Assembly (NCBI GenBank): GCA_964344415.1
Contig: CAYFMS010000001.1
Span: 100,214-164,213, forward strand
Source of the DNA: an uncultured Gammaproteobacteria bacterium
GTDB lineage: Bacteria > Patescibacteriota > Patescibacteriia > UBA9934
Length of the DNA stretch: 64,000 nt
Direction of reading: 5' to 3'
The notes beneath the pieces are model-generated. The model made no database searches. It was given only the letters and a program-made list of their open reading frames with translations, and had not been told where the DNA came from. The position numbers and the translations under genes were made by a program. This document shows positions 25,345 to 48,845 of the stretch, piece by piece (position 1 is the first letter of the stretch; every line of letters begins with the position of its first letter).

Positions 25345-26484
25345 TTATTGTCGTATCGGCATCACAATATACTTAAACACTTCGTCTGGCATGCCAAGAG
25401 GCGTAACAACACATGGATTCATGCCATCAATCATCTGTATTTTGATCTTTGAGCTGCTCATGGCATTAAGCCCATCGAGCAAATAACGATAATTCAAGGC
25501 TATTTCATTCTCCCCTCCCTCCATTTCCACATCGAGCGATACGACATTTTCCCCGCGAACTGAATCATTTGACCGTATCTCAATTTCATTTTCCCCTTTA
25601 GAACTCAGTCGAATATCATAAAGACCTAATTTAGAGAAAAGACTTGCTGTTTTTATGGCCTGTATGAGCTCGCTTCGATTTACATCGAAAGATGTCACAC
25701 TCTTTTCTGGAATAATTTGCCGGTAGTCAGGATATACACCCTCAATCGTCCTTGAAGTTAATTCAAAACTTCCATAGGTAAAGACAACTTGATTCTCCGA
25801 GAGACCTATCTCAATCGCCTCAGGCGCTTCTACATCGTCTTTAAAGAGCCCAAGTATGCGATGCAGTTCTGAAAGCGTTCTTTGCGGAATAATGACCTGT
25901 GCAGAATCCGTTGAACCACCGCTTATTGTCAAGACAACCTCTGAAAGCCGATAACTGTCTGTCGCTGCCATAATAACCTTGCCGCCACCTTCTCTTTCAT
26001 CATGAAAAGAAAAGAATACACCAGCGAGTTCTGGACGAGATTCATTTGTCGATGCAGCAAATAATACATTCGCAAGCCCTTTTTTGAATTCAGATACTGA
26101 CATGGAATATGTCTGCTGCCCCGAAACAGATGGAACAACCGGAAATTCCGTCGATGCAATTCCCTTGAGCTTTGTTTTGCTGTTTTTGCATGAAACCATC
26201 AATCCGTCGTCTACCAAATCAATATCAACTCGCTCACTTGGTAAGAGATTAGCAAAGTCATAGAAGAGTTTTGATGGAACGGTGTATTCCCCCTCTTGTT
26301 CAACTCTGCCTCTCATAGAACAAGAGACAGCCATTTCTAAATTGGTTGCAATAAGCTTTACATTTCCTCCCTCTGCTTTTATGAGTACATTCTCAAGAAC
26401 AGGTAAGTGGGCTTGTTTTGCTCCTAGGCGACTTGTAATGGCAAGTGCCTGCCAGAGATTGTCTTTTGTGCAAGATAGTTTCAC
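25345..26484 (-). CDS. dnaN: DNA polymerase III beta sliding clamp
   Basis: MKLSCTKDNLWQALAITSRL...; 379 aa; position immediately downstream of dnaA. Confidence 0.9.
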   Translation of the reverse strand: MKLSCTKDNLWQALAITSRLGAKQAHLPVLENVLIKAEGGNVKLIATNLEMAVSCSMRGRVEQEGEYTVPSKLFYDFANLLPSERVDIDLVDDGLMVSCKNSKTKLKGIASTEFPVVPSVSGQQTYSMSVSEFKKGLANVLFAASTNESRPELAGVFFSFHDEREGGGKVIMAATDSYRLSEVVLTISGGSTDSAQVIIPQRTLSELHRILGLFKDDVEAPEAIEIGLSENQVVFTYGSFELTSRTIEGVYPDYRQIIPEKSVTSFDVNRSELIQAIKTASLFSKLGLYDIRLSSKGENEIEIRSNDSVRGENVVSLDVEMEGGENEIALNYRYLLDGLNAMSSSKIKIQMIDGMNPCVVTPLGMPDEVFKYIVMPIRQ

Positions 26485-26554
26485 AGTATTTCGGTTATCT
26501 CTTATTAATAAAGAGAATATATAGGTTTATAAATCAGTAGTAACAGTAGGGCAT

Positions 26555-26762
26555 GTGGACAGCGTGGATAAGTGACGTTTATGCCCGTGATTCTTTACTG
26601 AAAGTGCTTGGGGATTTGTGCACAGTACATGGGAGTTCTTGTGAATGAATTGTGTACAGATTCGAGGCACTTTCACACTATGTGTTTATCCTCAGGTTTT
26701 TCACCAAGATGTTCATAGGTTTATCCACGCAGCTTATCCACTTATCCTCATATTATCCAGAA
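26555..26762. promoter_or_regulatory. DnaA-box cluster (oriC element) between dnaA and dnaN
   Basis: TTATCCACG (26721), TTATCCACT (26734), TTATCCTCA, TTATCCAGA, CGTGGATAA (26564) and TGTGGACAG (26555): at least six 7-8/9 matches to TTATCCACA. Confidence 0.75.
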
Positions 26763-28150
26763 TAGATTTTCTGCTTGATGAGTTCTAGGTCACGCTTTAG
26801 CTGTTCATCAGTGTCGAGCAGCTTCACGATTTTACTGTATGCGTGCATAGCGGTTGTATGGTCACGTCCGCCGAGTTCCTGTCCAATGGACGGATAAGAA
26901 CTATCCATTTCCTCTCTCAGAAGGTACATAACGATTTGGCGAGGGAATGCCAAGCGTTTTTCCCTACTTTTTCCAAGAATATCTTCTTGATTAATGTCGA
27001 AATATTCAGCGACGGTAAGAATAATTTGTTTCGGTGACACTGTTTTTTTCATGCTGCTTGCCTCGAAGCTCGCAATGAGCGGTTGGCAGGTGTCGATGGT
27101 GGGCTCGATATTCTTAAACTGGTGATAGGCAACAATTTTTGTAAGCGCTCCCTCGAGTTCTCGCACATTTGAAGAGATATTATCGGCAATATAGTGCAGA
27201 ATTTCCCGAGGAATGCTGACGCCGCGTTTTTGACATTTGATGTCGAGAATCGCAACGCGCGTTTCAAGGTCTGGAGCACCAATATCAACGAGCATGCCCC
27301 ATTCGAGCCTAGAAAGAAGGCGCTTCTCAAGGGCAGCAATGGCGCGAGGCTGCCTATCAGACGCAATAATGATCTGTTTATTTGCCTGATGAAGGGCATT
27401 AAAGGTATGGAAGAACTCTTCTTGTGTCCCTTCTTTACCAGTGATGAACTGAATGTCATCAATAAGGAGCAGGTCTACATTACGGTATCGATCTTTGAAT
27501 TCTTTTGCTTTTCCGCCGCGCACAGCCTGAATAAAATCATTTGTGAACTGCTCGCATGTCACATAAAGCACGCGGGCATTTGGCTTTGAACGAACGATTT
27601 CATTCCCAACTGCATGCAGAAGATGTGTTTTCCCAAGCCCAACGCCTCCGTAAATGAAAAGAGGGTTATATGTGCCACCGGGTTGCGCTGCAACAGCTTG
27701 CGCGGCTGCATGCGCGAGCTCATTCTGCTTCCCAACAATGAAGCTTTGGAAGATATAATTTGTATTAATAGCACTGCTACTTGTTGCAGGCCCCTGGTCA
27801 TTCGTAACGAATCCGTAATCTTCTGGAGTATTTTCAACAGGAGCCGCCTCTACTTTTTCTTCCTCTTTAGGGGAGAAGTCAACCGCAACAGGGTCGGCTG
27901 GTTTCGTTGCGACACGATATTCAAGTCCGCGAATAGTGTGTTCAGTAATATTTTGCAGGCTAAGAAGTATGTCGCGATGATACTTTTTTTCAAGCCATGC
28001 TTTTGTGAATTGATTTGGAACACCAACAATAATGGTGTCCGGAGAAAACTCCGCAATGAATGTATTGCGGAACCAAGTAGTGAAATGCGCTTTGCTGAGC
28101 TTCAATTCAAGCTCACCAAGCGCTGCTTGCCAGAGTTCATGTGTATTCAT
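26753..28150 (-). CDS. dnaA: chromosomal replication initiator protein
   Basis: AAA+ Walker A GGVGLGKTHLLHA and C-terminal DNA-binding motifs; start at ATG 28150 (MNTHELWQAALGELE). Confidence 0.95.
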   Translation of the reverse strand: MNTHELWQAALGELELKLSKAHFTTWFRNTFIAEFSPDTIIVGVPNQFTKAWLEKKYHRDILLSLQNITEHTIRGLEYRVATKPADPVAVDFSPKEEEKVEAAPVENTPEDYGFVTNDQGPATSSSAINTNYIFQSFIVGKQNELAHAAAQAVAAQPGGTYNPLFIYGGVGLGKTHLLHAVGNEIVRSKPNARVLYVTCEQFTNDFIQAVRGGKAKEFKDRYRNVDLLLIDDIQFITGKEGTQEEFFHTFNALHQANKQIIIASDRQPRAIAALEKRLLSRLEWGMLVDIGAPDLETRVAILDIKCQKRGVSIPREILHYIADNISSNVRELEGALTKIVAYHQFKNIEPTIDTCQPLIASFEASSMKKTVSPKQIILTVAEYFDINQEDILGKSREKRLAFPRQIVMYLLREEMDSSYPSIGQELGGRDHTTAMHAYSKIVKLLDTDEQLKRDLELIKQKIYSG

Positions 28151-28191
28151 AGATATTCCCCTCAAATTCGACTGATCATCATGTTACACTA

Positions 28192-28269
28192 GATATCCAC
28201 AGGCCTCAATGCACCGAAAAAGCGGGATCTTTGGACAGACTGTGGATAACCTGTGTGTATATGTGGATA
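28192..28269. promoter_or_regulatory. DnaA boxes upstream of dnaA (oriC / autoregulation)
   Basis: TGTGGATAA perfect at 28240-28248, TGTGGATAG at 28261-28269, ATATCCACA at 28192-28200. Confidence 0.75.
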
Positions 28270-28386
28270 GATCGCTAATTATTGACATATTTTTATGCAA
28301 ATGTTACTCTCTGGCTACTTCAGACATGCAAAGAGTATGTCGCATTATTTCTCGGAATTAATTCGAGTACAAAAATAAAGGAAAAT

Positions 28387-32205: not shown

Positions 32206-33702
32206 CTACTTTTTTCTCATTTGAATTGCCTCAGCGACATGAGATGCCTGTACGACGCCGCTTGCCTCTAAGTCGGCGATCGTGCGTGCTAACTTTTTGA
32301 TTCGGCCAAGGCTTCTTGCGGACAGATGAAGTTTTTCATATGCCGTCTGCGCAAGATTGTCTGCCTTGGCGGTCATGCAGAGCATGCTACGCATGTCTCG
32401 TTGAGAAATCTCGGCATTGATATTGTACAAGCGATCATAAAAGCGTTTCTGCTGCATTTCTCTTGCCGCGATAACACGCTTTCTCACGGATGAAGATTCT
32501 TCTGTGGATTTGGGCCGGAGCTCATCAATGCGCAGCCTCGGTACATCAATAAACATATCAATACGATCAGAAATAGGGCCAGATATTGTACTTGAATAGC
32601 GCTCAATTTGTCCTGCGCTACATGTGCAGGGCATATCTATATCTGTGCTGAAACCACATGGGCAGGGATTCATGGCCCCAATGAGCATAAAACGTGCCGG
32701 ATACGTGTATGAACCCGCTGCACGGGCTATATGCACTTCTCCATCTTCGAGTGGCCCGCGCAAATGTTCTATGGTTTTCTTTGAGAACTCTGGTAACTCG
32801 TCGAGAAAGAGAACCCCGCGATGAGCAAGAGAGATCTCTCCTGGTCGCGGATGCGTCCCCCCGCCGATTAATGCCACACTGGACGCAGAATGATGCGGAC
32901 TTCGAAATGGCGGTTGGCGTATTAATTGTGAAAATGGTTCATTTTGAACCGAAGAATGTATACATGTTACCTCTATTGCCTCTTCATCTGTAAGTGGTGG
33001 AAGGATGCTGGGCATGGATTTTGCAAGCAGTGTTTTTCCGCTTCCAGGCGGCCCTGACATGAGTACATTGTGACCACCCGCCGCGGCAATTTCGAGACTT
33101 CTTTTTGCATGCATTTGTCCGTAAATATCTGAAAAATCAACGGTAAATTCCTCTGTATTTCCCGCATCTGTTTGCTTCACTGTCTTTTCAAGGGCCTGAT
33201 CCCGAAATGCATGAATGAGATCTGCCAGGCTAGATGCCGTATAGACATTCTTCATCACAAGTAAGGCCTCTTGCGCATTTTCACGTGGCACAATGAGCGG
33301 TGTATTTGTTTTTTGAGCTGCAAGCGCGCAGAGCATCGCAGCGCGTACTGTTTTTATTGATCCGTCTAGGCCAAGCTCGCCAATATATCCATACTGACTC
33401 GCCTGATCTTTCTGCAATTGTCCTGAAGCGGCAAGTATGGCGATTGCAATCGGTAAATCAAATGAGGGGCCACTCTTTTTGAGATGTGCTGGTGCTAAAT
33501 TAACGATGACGCGTATGCGCGGGAATGAAAATCCACTATTTCGCATTGCTGATCGTACCCTGTCTTTTGATTCCGATATCGCAGCATCCGGAAGTCCAAC
33601 AATAGAAAAGCCGGGTAGACCGCTTGCAATGTCCACTTCAATGGTAATTGGCTCCGCCTGTATGCCGATAATGGCATAACTTTGTAAACAAAAACTCCCC
33701 AT
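32206..33702 (-). CDS. YifB/ComM-family Mg-chelatase-like AAA ATPase
   Basis: N-terminal Lon-like domain, Walker A GPPGSGKT, and a C-terminal ChlI-like region. Confidence 0.8.
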   Translation of the reverse strand: MGSFCLQSYAIIGIQAEPITIEVDIASGLPGFSIVGLPDAAISESKDRVRSAMRNSGFSFPRIRVIVNLAPAHLKKSGPSFDLPIAIAILAASGQLQKDQASQYGYIGELGLDGSIKTVRAAMLCALAAQKTNTPLIVPRENAQEALLVMKNVYTASSLADLIHAFRDQALEKTVKQTDAGNTEEFTVDFSDIYGQMHAKRSLEIAAAGGHNVLMSGPPGSGKTLLAKSMPSILPPLTDEEAIEVTCIHSSVQNEPFSQLIRQPPFRSPHHSASSVALIGGGTHPRPGEISLAHRGVLFLDELPEFSKKTIEHLRGPLEDGEVHIARAAGSYTYPARFMLIGAMNPCPCGFSTDIDMPCTCSAGQIERYSSTISGPISDRIDMFIDVPRLRIDELRPKSTEESSSVRKRVIAAREMQQKRFYDRLYNINAEISQRDMRSMLCMTAKADNLAQTAYEKLHLSARSLGRIKKLARTIADLEASGVVQASHVAEAIQMRKK

Positions 33703-33724: not shown

Positions 33725-34141
33725 CTACTTCTTATTGTACAGGATTAATATGGCTATGCCAACAATAATGAGGATATCTGCCAGATTTATCACGGATTGC
33801 CCAACAATAAGGATATAATCCGTCGTAAATCCATGTATGATACGGTCAATATAATTTCCTAATGCGCCAGACAGGATACATAAAAAGGCGAATTTATGCA
33901 TCGGCATGGCCGTTTTGCGCATGCCGTAAATAAGAAGGGCGATAATTATGGTGGATATAGGCAGTAAAATGGCATGAGGGATAAAAATACTGCCCGCAAT
34001 ACCCGGATTCTTATATAAAGAGATGTCGAAAAAGAAGTTAAAAACGCGTTCATGTTCAGTGAGCGCGTTTAATGCGGCTAATTTTAGGGAAAAATCAACA
34101 ATCGCAACTAAAATTGGTACTAGGAAAAGATGTGGAGACAT
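33725..34141 (-). CDS. lspA: lipoprotein signal peptidase II
   Basis: 138 aa with 4 TM helices; NPGIAGS and GNYIDRIIHGFTTDY motifs. Confidence 0.8.
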   Translation of the reverse strand: MSPHLFLVPILVAIVDFSLKLAALNALTEHERVFNFFFDISLYKNPGIAGSIFIPHAILLPISTIIIALLIYGMRKTAMPMHKFAFLCILSGALGNYIDRIIHGFTTDYILIVGQSVINLADILIIVGIAILILYNKK

Positions 34142-34515
34142 TAAAGTTCTTGTGTAAGAGTCTTTTTACTCGCAACTGATGACGTTGATGTTGGTCTTGC
34201 GCGTAATCTCCCCTCTGAAATAGGTTCTCCTGTGTATTTGTCGATACCATATGTACCCTCTTCAATACGGTTCAGGGCATTATTTACGTCGCGCAAGCTT
34301 TTTTCAAGCTCAGATTCCAAAGAAAGGCTGCTCCCATATTCGGCAACTTCCATAGCATTCTCGTCCTCATCATCTCCATAATTTGGAAAGCTGGCATCGT
34401 ATTCTTCGCTAGATTTACCCGTTTTTTTTGCAATTCGCTTCAATGCATCCTCGAGGCGGTCTTTTTCATTGAGTAAAACCTCCTTCATTTCTGCTACAAA
34501 TTCGTCTTTATGCAT
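34141..34515 (-). CDS. DksA/TraR-family protein with a Cys-less (degenerate) zinc finger
   Basis: Coiled-coil N-terminus plus a C-terminal GTYGIDKYTGEPISEGRLRARP that lacks the four Cys. Confidence 0.55.
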   Translation of the reverse strand: MHKDEFVAEMKEVLLNEKDRLEDALKRIAKKTGKSSEEYDASFPNYGDDEDENAMEVAEYGSSLSLESELEKSLRDVNNALNRIEEGTYGIDKYTGEPISEGRLRARPTSTSSVASKKTLTQEL

Positions 34516-34551: not shown

Positions 34552-34612
34552 AATAAGAAAAAAAAGAAGAGGGTTCGGCGGACATAGAAGTAAAAAAGTT
34601 CCTTGAACCCTC
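34552..34612 (-). terminator. Rho-independent terminator (minus strand)
   Basis: gagggttc ... gaaccctc 8-bp stem followed on the minus strand by uucuuuuuuuu. Confidence 0.5.
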
Positions 34613-34900
34613 ACGAAAGGCGTGGGACACCGTCCGTGAAGAGTGGGTTTTGGTGAAAAAAACATGTTTTCCTCAAAACTCACTCTTCATTCGGCGTCAA
34701 ACCTTGGCCTTTTAGATGACACCCCACTCTACCCTGCGTTGGTTTTGCTGCCCCCCGTTGCAGCTAACCGAGCCCACTAGAAAGGATAAAAGCATGGACC
34801 GCTAGTAAAGTGGTGAGATATGCCCCGAAACTGCGCAGTTGCAGTGTGGGTTTTCGGGACACCTCCCCCGTGTCATAAACACAGACGAGATTGTTGAAAG
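34613..34900 (-). ncRNA. candidate structured RNA or long structured 3' UTR of unknown class
   Basis: GC ~52% in an AT-rich context. A 15-bp helix (34638-34652 / 34674-34688) plus further helices. No ORF with an SD. Ends at the terminator. Weak similarity to RNase P conserved regions only. Confidence 0.3.
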
Positions 34901-35029
34901 AGCGACTTACATTAATAATTGTATTCAGTTGAACACATATTGTCAACATGTTATAAGTCCTTTAAATAAAGGGCAAAACGCCATATGTGTATAACTTTTT
35001 TATATAAATCCCGCAAAGGCCTCACAGCC

Positions 35030-35066
35030 TGTGGATAAACTGTGTGAGAATTGTTAGTTATCCACA
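35030..35066. promoter_or_regulatory. convergent pair of perfect DnaA boxes away from oriC
   Basis: TGTGGATAA at 35030-35038 and TTATCCACA at 35058-35066. Confidence 0.6.
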
Positions 35067-36136
35067 TTTATACAGAGAATGAGGTCATTTCCTTTAAATT
35101 CTGCCGATTTAATAGGTGTAAAGAATTCCGGCACAAGCGACAGTGATGAAGACAATATGTCGTCAAACACATGATTTTTTCTGACCATCATTGAATGCGG
35201 TCTTGATGTACATTCACCATTTGGCTTGTTTTCGCCAAGTTTTTCTATAATTGCTCTATTTGTGTATTTGTGAAGATCTCCTGTCTTTACGATATTGCCG
35301 GATATATTTCCCTGCTCAAATCCTAAAATGAGTCCATCTTCTATGTTTTCTATACTTGAATGGGTGCTATCTGCATTGGATCGAATTTCTTTAATAGTTG
35401 TCCCATCACTCAATGTCAAGGCTAGCGTAGACAAATTACTGCTTTGTACGGTTTTTTGGAGGAAATTTGCTAAATCTTCATCTGAAAATGCGCCTGTGAA
35501 AAGTATGGAGAAAAACTCATCGTCTTGACCTTGCCCCCATATGAACTGATGAATGGTCGCATTCGGTAGAAAAGACATTGATTTAATGTCAAAGTTAATA
35601 AATGTGTGGATTTCCGTATTTTCAGGGGTGAGATATTGATGAGAATTGGATTTTTGACCAATATTGCTTATTCGTATGCTTTTTTGGTTAAATCGAGCAG
35701 GATAAAAGCCATCTTCATTTGCATAATAGGCTCTTTTTGCTATCAGAAAGGGGTTTCGTTGCTTTTTATAAGGCATAACACTGAATCTCCCCTGACTTGT
35801 TGTTACGCCAATGAGGCTGTTTTCTGAGAAGAAAAGCGATATTTCTCCTCTTGCATTGCGCAAAAGGCTATTTACTGACACGGTTGTCCCATCTATAACG
35901 GTATTTCCGAGTAATTCGTGAATAATGGGTATGCTTCTAGTATGCAGCGGTATTCTGAGATAGCTTTCCGTTCCATCGGGGGCATATTTTGCTGTATTTT
36001 TCGTTCTTTGCAATGCGGTTATAATGATTATTGTGCTAAGAATGGCTAAAATAAGAAAGATAATATTAGAAACAACCCGCCTGGATGGACGGGTTGTTTT
36101 TGTTATATCAATTGATAGAGATTTATGACTTTGCAT
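35054..36136 (-). CDS. hypothetical single-pass membrane protein
   Basis: TM helix IIFLILAILSTIIIITAL followed by a ~300-aa extracytoplasmic domain. Start at ATG 36136. Confidence 0.55.
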   Translation of the reverse strand: MQSHKSLSIDITKTTRPSRRVVSNIIFLILAILSTIIIITALQRTKNTAKYAPDGTESYLRIPLHTRSIPIIHELLGNTVIDGTTVSVNSLLRNARGEISLFFSENSLIGVTTSQGRFSVMPYKKQRNPFLIAKRAYYANEDGFYPARFNQKSIRISNIGQKSNSHQYLTPENTEIHTFINFDIKSMSFLPNATIHQFIWGQGQDDEFFSILFTGAFSDEDLANFLQKTVQSSNLSTLALTLSDGTTIKEIRSNADSTHSSIENIEDGLILGFEQGNISGNIVKTGDLHKYTNRAIIEKLGENKPNGECTSRPHSMMVRKNHVFDDILSSSLSLVPEFFTPIKSAEFKGNDLILCINVDN

Positions 36137-38485: not shown

Positions 38486-39118
38486 CTAAAATGTTAACTT
38501 TCTACTTCGTCGCTCTTCAATATCTTCGACGGATTCATCGTCTTTATTTACTTCAATGGGACGAAGGATTTCTTTTGCTTTTTTCGTCTTCGTTGTTCTG
38601 CTATTCGACTTGGATCGGCTATTTGCGATCAAAAACTTCCTTTTGCTTTCTGATAAATTCGTATAGATGTCGGCCGCTTCAACAAGTCGTGTGGATGTAG
38701 ATTCACGAAGAGACATGACATGGACAATGCGTCCGCGCGATTGAACATACTCAACAAGTGGCACAAAATCGCCATCACCAGAAACAAGGACGACAACGTC
38801 GAGCATGTCGAGCATACGAATGACGTCGATTGTTAGACCGACATCCCAATCTCCTTTTTTATTTCCTCCATGATATTCAAGTAATTCTTTTGAGATGACT
38901 TCAATTCCCTCACTTCGCAAAGCATTGAAAAAAGCCTCCTCTGCTCCCTCCTCTGTTGAAATAGTATATGCAAGTGCGCGAATGAGATGTCCATTTTCGC
39001 TACCCGCTTTTACAATATTTGAAAAGTTAACCTTTCGGTTGAAAATATTTCTTGCGCTATAGTACATGTTCTGTACATCGATGAAAACACCGACGCGCCT
39101 ATTTTTTACATTTAACAT
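38486..39118 (-). CDS. NYN-domain (LabA/DUF88-like) protein
   Basis: VGVFIDVQNMYYS...VVLVSGDGDFVPLVEY NYN nuclease-fold motifs. Confidence 0.7.
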   Translation of the reverse strand: MLNVKNRRVGVFIDVQNMYYSARNIFNRKVNFSNIVKAGSENGHLIRALAYTISTEEGAEEAFFNALRSEGIEVISKELLEYHGGNKKGDWDVGLTIDVIRMLDMLDVVVLVSGDGDFVPLVEYVQSRGRIVHVMSLRESTSTRLVEAADIYTNLSESKRKFLIANSRSKSNSRTTKTKKAKEILRPIEVNKDDESVEDIEERRSRKLTF

Positions 39119-39160
39119 AATATAGAAAAAGGAAAACTCGCCTGAGCGAGCTTTCATTGA

Positions 39161-39439
39161 TTAATTCTCTTTTTTAACTCGAAGCTTCAAGTCAGCAACA
39201 ATCTTGTCGAATGCTTTCGCATCTTCGCGCTGCAAATACTTCATGAGTCGTCGTCGTTCAACAACTTTCTTCAGAAGTCCTCGGCGTGAGCTGAAATCTT
39301 TCTTATGACTTCGCAAATGATTTGTGAGGTCTTTGATTTCGGCTGTCAAAATCGCAATCTGTACTTGGGGAGACCCCGTGTCCGTTTCATGCGTTTTGAA
39401 TTTATTGATAATGTTCTGCTTCTGTCTTTTTGTGAGCAT
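39161..39439 (-). CDS. rpsO: 30S ribosomal protein S15
   Basis: GSPQVQIAILTAEIKDLTNHLRSHKKDFSSRRGLLK S15 signature. Confidence 0.95.
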   Translation of the reverse strand: MLTKRQKQNIINKFKTHETDTGSPQVQIAILTAEIKDLTNHLRSHKKDFSSRRGLLKKVVERRRLMKYLQREDAKAFDKIVADLKLRVKKEN

Positions 39440-48648: not shown

Positions 48649-48775
48649 TTATCCACTTCAAAGTCGGACATAACTGTGGATAACTTTACCAGTTTCACAT
48701 GAATCGACTAAAAATATAATCGCTAAGATTAGCGCAGAATCGTAATTTGATAAAAAATGTGTTCAATGTGGATAA
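48649..48775. promoter_or_regulatory. three DnaA boxes upstream of the surface-protein operon
   Basis: TTATCCACT at 48649-48657; TGTGGATAA perfect at 48675-48683 and at 48767-48775. Confidence 0.55.
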
Positions 48776-48845
48776 CCTGTGAACAAGTTATGAATTGTAT
48801 AAAAATCTTCAAGAAACTTTGCTAAAAATAGCGTATAATAAAGAC

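Follow-up and report, generated by a model that had tools for sequence, protein, structure and literature searches.

A predicted DnaA-box cluster upstream of a structured RNA and a dksA-like operon, close to the replication origin of a member of the Patescibacteria

Boxes and genes at the locus

The stretch of DNA analysed here (the window, 64,000 nucleotides) is part of a 768-kb metagenomic contig, and the organism is represented by metagenomes only. Around 35 kb, a minus-strand series of genes that begins with rpsO ends at a non-coding stretch, which carries DnaA boxes, a promoter and a structured RNA and leads into a second minus-strand series that begins with a dksA-like gene. The features of this region, together with dnaA and dnaN, are as follows.

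25345-26484, minus strand: dnaN
26753-28165, minus strand: dnaA
32206-34515, minus strand: downstream operon of dksA-like, lspA and comM, with conserved synteny
32206-33702, minus strand: comM/yifB-like gene, Mg-chelatase ATPase
33725-34141, minus strand: lspA
34141-34515, minus strand: dksA-like gene, 124 aa
34516-35053, minus strand: non-coding stretch of 538 bp
about 34612-34549, minus strand: hairpin and T-run terminator closing the RNA
34556-34911, minus strand: structured RNA of about 350 nt, folding z-score -4.8 against shuffles
34946-34918, minus strand: sigma-70-type promoter TTGACA-17-TACAAT, 11 of 12 matches; motif gTTGACAat..tGTTCA family-wide
34986-34994, minus strand: DnaA box C, TTATACACA, one mismatch, oriented as box B and identical to the E. 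coli R2 sequence
35030-35038, minus strand: DnaA box B, perfect TTATCCACA; the plus strand reads TGTGGATAA
35039-35057, no strand: spacer of 19 bp between boxes A and B, its length kept and its sequence variable among genomes
35058-35066, plus strand: DnaA box A, perfect TTATCCACA (exact 9-mer), promoter-distal arm of the inverted pair
35068-35076, plus strand: weak DnaA box D, TTATACAGA, one mismatch to TTATNCACA, 1 bp from box A
35054-36136, minus strand: hypothetical protein, 360 aa, with one N-terminal hydrophobic segment
36123-38384, minus strand: pnp
38486-39157, minus strand: NYN-domain gene
39161-39439, minus strand: rpsO

An earlier note on this DNA had described the pair of perfect boxes, 35030-35038 and 35058-35066, as facing each other 19 bp apart at the 3' end of a hypothetical membrane-protein gene and upstream of a GC-rich structured element and the dksA-like gene. 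Both sequence and location are as it described them. Beyond this pair we find a third box (TTATACACA, 34986-34994) and a weak fourth (TTATACAGA, 35068-35076). Box A covers the last three sense codons of the 360-aa gene, which ends in ...GTG GAT AAC TAA, and box D lies inside its coding end, while box B sits 15 bp beyond the stop codon (35054-35056). The gene is the last of the rpsO-NYN-pnp-hypothetical series, and its stop codon abuts the box pair. Its reading frame starts at ATG, and an identical product is already on record. A TTG start for the same frame was rejected: an exact look-up gave no match, and the annotated start is ATG.

The note had called perfect boxes infrequent at about 40% GC. 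In the window, whose GC content is about 44%, 0.44 perfect boxes are expected and five are found, and at least five occur in none of 100 shuffles. The five lie at 28241, at 35030 and 35058, and at 48675 and 48767; that is, they form three clusters at gene ends or in intergenic DNA. When one mismatch is allowed, the clusters in the window are 26563-26761, 28193-28270, 34986-35066 and 48649-48775. By our own estimate, the chance of finding two perfect boxes no more than 40 bp apart anywhere in 64 kb is about 1e-4. Chance is excluded as the origin of the perfect boxes in the window.

The 35-kb locus thus holds two exact copies of the high-affinity consensus TTATCCACA, in addition to TTATACACA. 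The organism's own DnaA matches PF08299 and retains the helix-turn-helix motif GGRDHTT, which we take, from what is known of E. coli DnaA, to be its DNA-binding motif. Boxes of the same kind flank the organism's own dnaA gene, at 26554-26761 on one side and 28193-28270 on the other.

Conservation of the boxes, the promoter and the RNA

No homologues of the 360-aa protein were found among 5.8 billion proteins searched, so PNPase and the dksA-like protein were used to anchor the comparison. The closest PNPase matches are mostly from Patescibacteria (Uhr-, Magasanik-, Falkow-, Buchanan- and Komeilibacteria), and the nearest GTDB representatives by PNPase reach only 50-55% identity. Relatives of the 124-aa dksA-like protein carry PF01258 and are named TraR/DksA. 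The close comparison covers ten genomes: the window, eight relatives (L083-L090), which are the contigs encoding the closest dksA-like proteins (63-73% identity), and one metagenome contig (L150) with the same layout, found by a pattern scan for TGTGGATAA-N19-TTATCCACA. These ten genomes amount to about four lineages.

All eight relatives share one gene order: xerC-rpsO-NYN-pnp, a hypothetical gene, 450-650 bp of non-coding DNA, and dksA-like-lspA-comM (lspA is not called in two of the eight loci). Where a locus reaches far enough, rnpA, alone or together with dnaA, follows after another 5-6 kb or so. The hypothetical gene that separates pnp from the boxes is evolving very fast, with 22-25% identity in the longer matches against 64-71% for PNPase, and in several of the eight relatives a counterpart of the 360-aa gene goes undetected though its position and size (294-411 aa) are kept. 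The NYN-domain gene (RNase-like) between rpsO and pnp occurs in the window, in L003-L013 and in L083-L090, and the rpsO-NYN-pnp block is absent from the non-CPR loci of the same search.

Against this background the box pair stands out. The arrangement TGTGGATAA-N19-TTATCCACA is present in nine of the ten genomes, the tenth (L083) having N20, and both 9-mers are invariant in all ten. The spacer and the flanks, on the other hand, cannot be aligned among relatives whose PNPases are 64-71% identical. The spacer of some relatives contains a weak tandem box 2 bp from the flanking box. The 99.1 kb from the eight relatives contain 21 perfect boxes, compared with about one expected by chance; the 115-bp element accounts for 18 of them, and the remaining three all sit immediately upstream of dnaA. 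This conservation strongly supports the prediction that the element is a functional DnaA-binding site outside oriC.

The promoter is equally persistent: gTTGACAat..tGTTCA...TAcAAT is kept in the window, the eight relatives and L150. In the direction of transcription the window reads TGTGGATAA-N19-TTATCCACA-N35-TTATACACA, with the weak box abutting the first, which places the boxes at about -79 (centre of box C), -123 and -151 relative to the predicted transcript start. We measured distances to the -35 hexamer as base pairs between it and the end of the box. The promoter-proximal box lies 38-41 bp from the -35 in seven of the ten genomes and 60-61 bp in the other three; a box at 60-61 bp is also present in L085. 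The right arm of the pair is 72-75 bp from the -35 in eight genomes, 61 bp in L083 and 83 bp in the window, where box B ends. The pair in the window is displaced by 9 bp, or roughly one helical turn, yet box C stays at 39 bp. The 39-bp interval between box C and the -35 has no conserved sequence, and the boxes occupy positions 39-111 bp upstream of the -35 without overlapping the core promoter.

Downstream of this promoter, the RNA is well defined. Nine family sequences, which align well, give a consensus structure of 40 pairs; 93% of the paired cells in the alignment can pair, against 35-54% when the partners are slid, and compensatory changes occur in 15 of the 40 pairs, against 5-9 in controls. 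Values as high as these did not occur in any shuffle. A covariance model built on the 5' domain matches 34803-34906 in the window and recovers the nine family sequences and the metagenomic contig L150 (E = 3e-14). On more distant relatives the same model finds no match, L215 giving only E = 0.2, at the expected place. No Rfam family matches the RNA in the window or in two relatives, either at the gathering score or at E values up to 10, and ARAGORN reports no tmRNA. Compared by eye with RNase P, SRP, 6S and tmRNA sequences, it shows no evident resemblance. The unclassified RNA may be more novel than the box element itself.

As for what follows the RNA, no sigma-70-like promoter was found between its terminator and the dksA-like start in six of nine genomes, and only weak ones in the others; in L083 the terminator abuts the dksA-like start codon. 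Since most genomes have no good promoter after the terminator, the RNA, at about 350 nt, probably serves dksA-like-lspA-comM as a long leader or attenuator, and, if it is a leader, the boxes lie upstream of the operon's main promoter.

We also considered eleven more distant loci in which the dksA-like gene and its upstream region are in view, placing promoters by eye. Every one of the nine loci with a placeable promoter has at least one box of no more than one mismatch in the 150 bp preceding the -35; four of these nine have boxes just downstream of the -10 as well. Another locus, L063, has no long non-coding stretch, no placeable promoter and no boxes upstream of the dksA-like gene. The inverted N19 arrangement recurs in L010 and L012. 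In L006 the boxes lie between divergent rpsO and dksA-like genes. In L215 the upstream gene is fusA, which has its own terminator before the boxes; two perfect boxes then precede the promoter, and the RNA starts with the shared TTCTTTCNACAA motif. The boxes thus appear to go with the promoter rather than with the upstream gene. Their number, orientation and position vary among the distant relatives, so that no one regulatory geometry is kept throughout the class. No dnaA gene was found within 5-8 kb of downstream sequence at these distant loci.

In five of the distant loci (L003, L006, L010, L214 and L215), palindrome-like copies of TTGTATACAC..GTCTATACAA flank the DnaA boxes upstream of the RNA promoter. 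They are not obvious in the window. Their placement suggests sites for a second DNA-binding protein, or else weak DnaA sites.

Because the pair is an inverted repeat that abuts or overlaps the upstream stop codon in all eight relatives, it might act on the rpsO-NYN-pnp-hypothetical transcript, either as a hairpin in the RNA that terminates or stabilises its 3' end or, with DnaA bound, as a roadblock to read-through. In keeping with such a role, the search of the minus strand between the upstream stop codon and the promoter gave no intrinsic terminator. Yet both arms match the DnaA consensus exactly in all ten genomes without a compensatory change, whereas the neighbouring RNA helices covary freely, and no U-run follows the repeat. 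Moreover, the upstream gene in L215 terminates before the boxes, and those of L006 lie between divergent genes. We consider either role improbable, and the identification of the pair as an RNA hairpin or terminator was rejected on its invariant arms and missing U-run.

Distance from the origin and likeness to known DnaA sites

GC skew and gene orientation over the 64 kb place a strand switch somewhere between 22 and 49 kb. As GC skew is too coarse to locate the origin, we relied on the trio module in the dnaA-dnaN spacer, where the relevant features are these.

26495-26534: AT-rich stretch, dnaA-dnaN spacer
26535-26549: five NAN trios, CAGTAGTAACAGTAG, followed by GGCA
26554-26571: two adjacent DnaA boxes, dnaA-dnaN spacer
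26686-26761: five more one-mismatch boxes, all in one orientation

In a basal unwinding system, one or more boxes are followed by no more than 16 bp of spacer, three or more NAN trios and then an AT-rich stretch (PMC8287927), and the dnaA-dnaN spacer at 26495-26571 fits this rule. The 35-kb pair is 8.5 kb from this module and 6.8 kb from the boxes upstream of dnaA, which bears out the distance of about 7 kb from oriC in the earlier note. Those upstream boxes are three in number (28193-28270); with boxes on both sides of dnaA, the origin looks bipartite and Bacillus-like.

Could the 35-kb element itself be part of the origin, as a second unwinding or assembly region? The arrangement TGTGGATAA-N19-TTATCCACA does occur in the dnaA-dnaN spacers of many bacteria, and 34880-35030 is fairly AT-rich. 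However, no run of NAN trios adjoins either 35-kb box, and the textbook module with CAGTAGTAACAGTAG sits in the dnaA-dnaN spacer instead. The element also lies inside the co-directional rpsO-comM block, where an origin would put four genes head-on to replication. An origin at 35 kb was rejected for the lack of trios and for this position, and we find the idea scarcely credible.

The recurrence of the layout is nonetheless instructive. A metagenome scan for TGTGGATAA-N19-TTATCCACA returned at least 120 stretches, 80 of them as loci, at all GC contents. Among the matches listed, at least 14 lie in dnaA-flanking spacers of unrelated bacteria, and in about one in six an additional box stands 2 bp away from an arm, so that 2 + 9 + 8 = 19. 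The presence of the N19 pair in many dnaA-flanking spacers points to a general DnaA assembly layout rather than a peculiarity of this locus; the inward-facing pair would then be a layout that recurs inside and outside origins.

The same likeness extends to the E. coli origin, where R1 and R4 are oriented relative to each other in the same way, TGTGGATAA ... TTATCCACA when read along one strand. As that origin is usually drawn, the boxes of such a pair would point toward each other. Another trait shared with origin arrays is the weaker tandem box 2 bp from an anchor box, seen in some relatives and in many of the oriC matches. The differences are that R1 and R4 are 171 bp apart rather than 19 bp, and that the 35-kb element has neither trios nor an unwinding element and is not at the origin.

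The earlier note had offered three functions for the pair: titration of the kind known from datA, DnaA reactivation, and DnaA-regulated transcription. Reactivation would follow the model of the DARS sites, in which opposed boxes force DnaA into a head-to-head dimer that releases ADP, so that ATP-DnaA is regenerated. With its three boxes, one opposite to the other two, lying in intergenic DNA beside a promoter, the element does resemble a DARS core. Read directly from E. coli MG1655, DARS1, which lies upstream of uvrB, is TTATCCACT-N5-TGTGGATAA-N3-TGTGTATTA, with ACA ends facing, in agreement with the head-to-head DnaA model published for DARS and the 5-bp gap given there (PMC6868365). The 35-kb pair is the mirror image: its TAA/TTA ends face inward across 19 bp, whereas DARS has its ACA ends facing across 5 bp (PMC6868365), and its third box is 35 bp away instead of 3 bp. 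Neither the facing ACA ends nor the combination of a 5-bp gap with a box III in tandem with box II is found here. Extending the model of PMC6868365, we would expect mirrored boxes to turn the domain IIIa faces of DnaA outward. Reactivation of this kind is, in our judgement, highly improbable.

A datA-like site would instead lower active DnaA by promoting the hydrolysis of DnaA-bound ATP with the aid of a DNA-bending protein. Like E. coli datA, the element is a cluster of high-affinity boxes outside oriC but close to it, and it could lower free or active DnaA after initiation. In contrast to datA, it is much smaller and has far fewer boxes, only three to four in about 90 bp. By the E. coli consensus WATCAANNNNTTR, there is no IHF site among its boxes or anywhere between 32303 and 40439, the nearest lying 2.7 kb off, although this lineage may lack IHF. 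We regard a datA-like mechanism as very improbable, and we rejected both the DARS and the datA identities because of the geometry and the lack of an IHF site.

The closest counterparts are the DnaA-box clusters of B. subtilis, which have four to eight boxes in 45-95 bp near oriC (Table 2, PMC2533591). They regulate their neighbours, sda upward and ywlC and yydA downward (PMC2533591; PMC3245932), and their deletion leads to early initiation, most strongly for those near oriC (PMC3245932). Examples are yqeG-sda, ywlC-ywlB and yydA-yycS (Ishikawa 2007, Okumura 2012). The element at 35 kb is likewise short, intergenic, close to oriC and beside a promoter, with several boxes of the TTATNCACA type, some of them perfect. 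It has four boxes with at most one mismatch to TTATNCACA within 91 bp (34986-35076), three of them perfect TTATNCACA and two of these TTATCCACA, and its 6.8 or 8.5 kb from the origin agrees with the near-oriC location of the Bacillus clusters. It differs in belonging to Patescibacteria, in having a structured RNA and a dksA-like operon as its target, and in being smaller (three to four boxes). A further difference is the inverted pair, whose 19-bp gap is strict and whose distance to the -35 is fixed; the assignment is made from sequence.

Proposed regulation of transcription and titration

We favour, with moderate confidence, the reading that the element is an origin-proximal DnaA-box cluster of the Bacillus type, which would regulate the adjacent promoter and also titrate DnaA. 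DnaA binding, an effect of that binding on transcription, and titration are all three matters that we infer. Of the options in the earlier note, DnaA-regulated transcription most likely fits best, with DnaA buffering as a by-product; what speaks for it is the fixed distance between boxes and promoter and the fact that the boxes stay when the upstream gene changes. Generic origin-proximal titration, by analogy with the Bacillus clusters, is compatible with this, while DARS reactivation and datA find no support in the anatomy.

If the element does regulate transcription, the perfect pair would be the high-affinity core of a DnaA cluster of three to four boxes. The two perfect boxes would be occupied by DnaA more or less constantly, and more DnaA would then bind to box C and to weak sites. 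Such an assembly would lie at a fixed distance from RNA polymerase and on a roughly fixed face of the helix, so that output could track active DnaA. The promoter at 34946-34918 would transcribe the RNA of about 350 nt, and dksA-like, lspA and comM would probably be reached by read-through of the terminator. By analogy with the boxes upstream of B. subtilis sda we would favour activation, the sign of the effect being a weak guess. Lying 7-8.5 kb from oriC, the site would be duplicated right after initiation and so should also buffer free DnaA.

Several points count against control of the promoter. A near-consensus promoter needs no activator, the boxes stay clear of the core promoter, and shared ancestry could partly explain the fixed spacing among the closest relatives.

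The extended -35 is TGTTGACAA (34939-34947, minus strand) in the window, L083, L084 and L086, two mismatches from TGTGGATAA. With so close a match, these four of the ten genomes may each have a weak DnaA site overlapping the -35.

The main rival is a pure DnaA sink near the origin, which would be compatible with regulation. On that account the boxes lie beside a promoter because a compact genome offers no other non-coding stretch of any size. The distance of 6.8-8.5 kb from oriC suits a sink, as does the position of dnaA in close relatives, about 6 kb downstream of the dksA-like gene, and four boxes within 91 bp equal the box density of B. subtilis clusters, whose deletion causes early initiation most strongly near oriC (PMC3245932). 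The boxes also leave the core promoter free. A sink, however, could lie at any distance from a promoter, whereas here 38-41 or 60-61 bp persists across otherwise diverged sequence; the boxes stay with the promoter when the upstream gene differs, and the distant relatives have no dnaA in the available 5-8 kb downstream. We therefore think a sink without regulation unlikely, though it deserves to be taken seriously.

A bolder version of regulated transcription is that DnaA directly controls both the RNA of about 350 nt, as a leader or riboregulator, and the DksA-like RNA-polymerase regulator, and that the inverted pair doubles as the cell's main DnaA buffer. We put this forward only tentatively and think it rather doubtful. 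If it were true, the status of replication initiation would be wired into global transcription control in this class of Patescibacteria, and organisms with such an inverted-pair buffer may lack the known DnaA regulators.

To our knowledge, nothing has been reported on replication timing, or on its coupling to growth, in ultra-small uncultured Patescibacteria, and no paper naming both DnaA boxes and Patescibacteria came up in our literature search. The element offers a concrete first candidate for a member of a DnaA regulon in the phylum, with a DksA-like factor and an unclassified RNA as its putative targets.

A further cluster in the window, at 48649-48775 and outside oriC, contains TTATCCACT-N17-TGTGGATAA, whose boxes face each other as in DARS but with a 17-bp gap. 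Another perfect TGTGGATAA lies 20 bp before the open reading frame at 48795. This cluster lies at the changeover to a long block of plus-strand genes, and it heads an operon for two unknown proteins and for large Ig-like/CarboxypepD_reg, peptidase-G2-like and TPR proteins.
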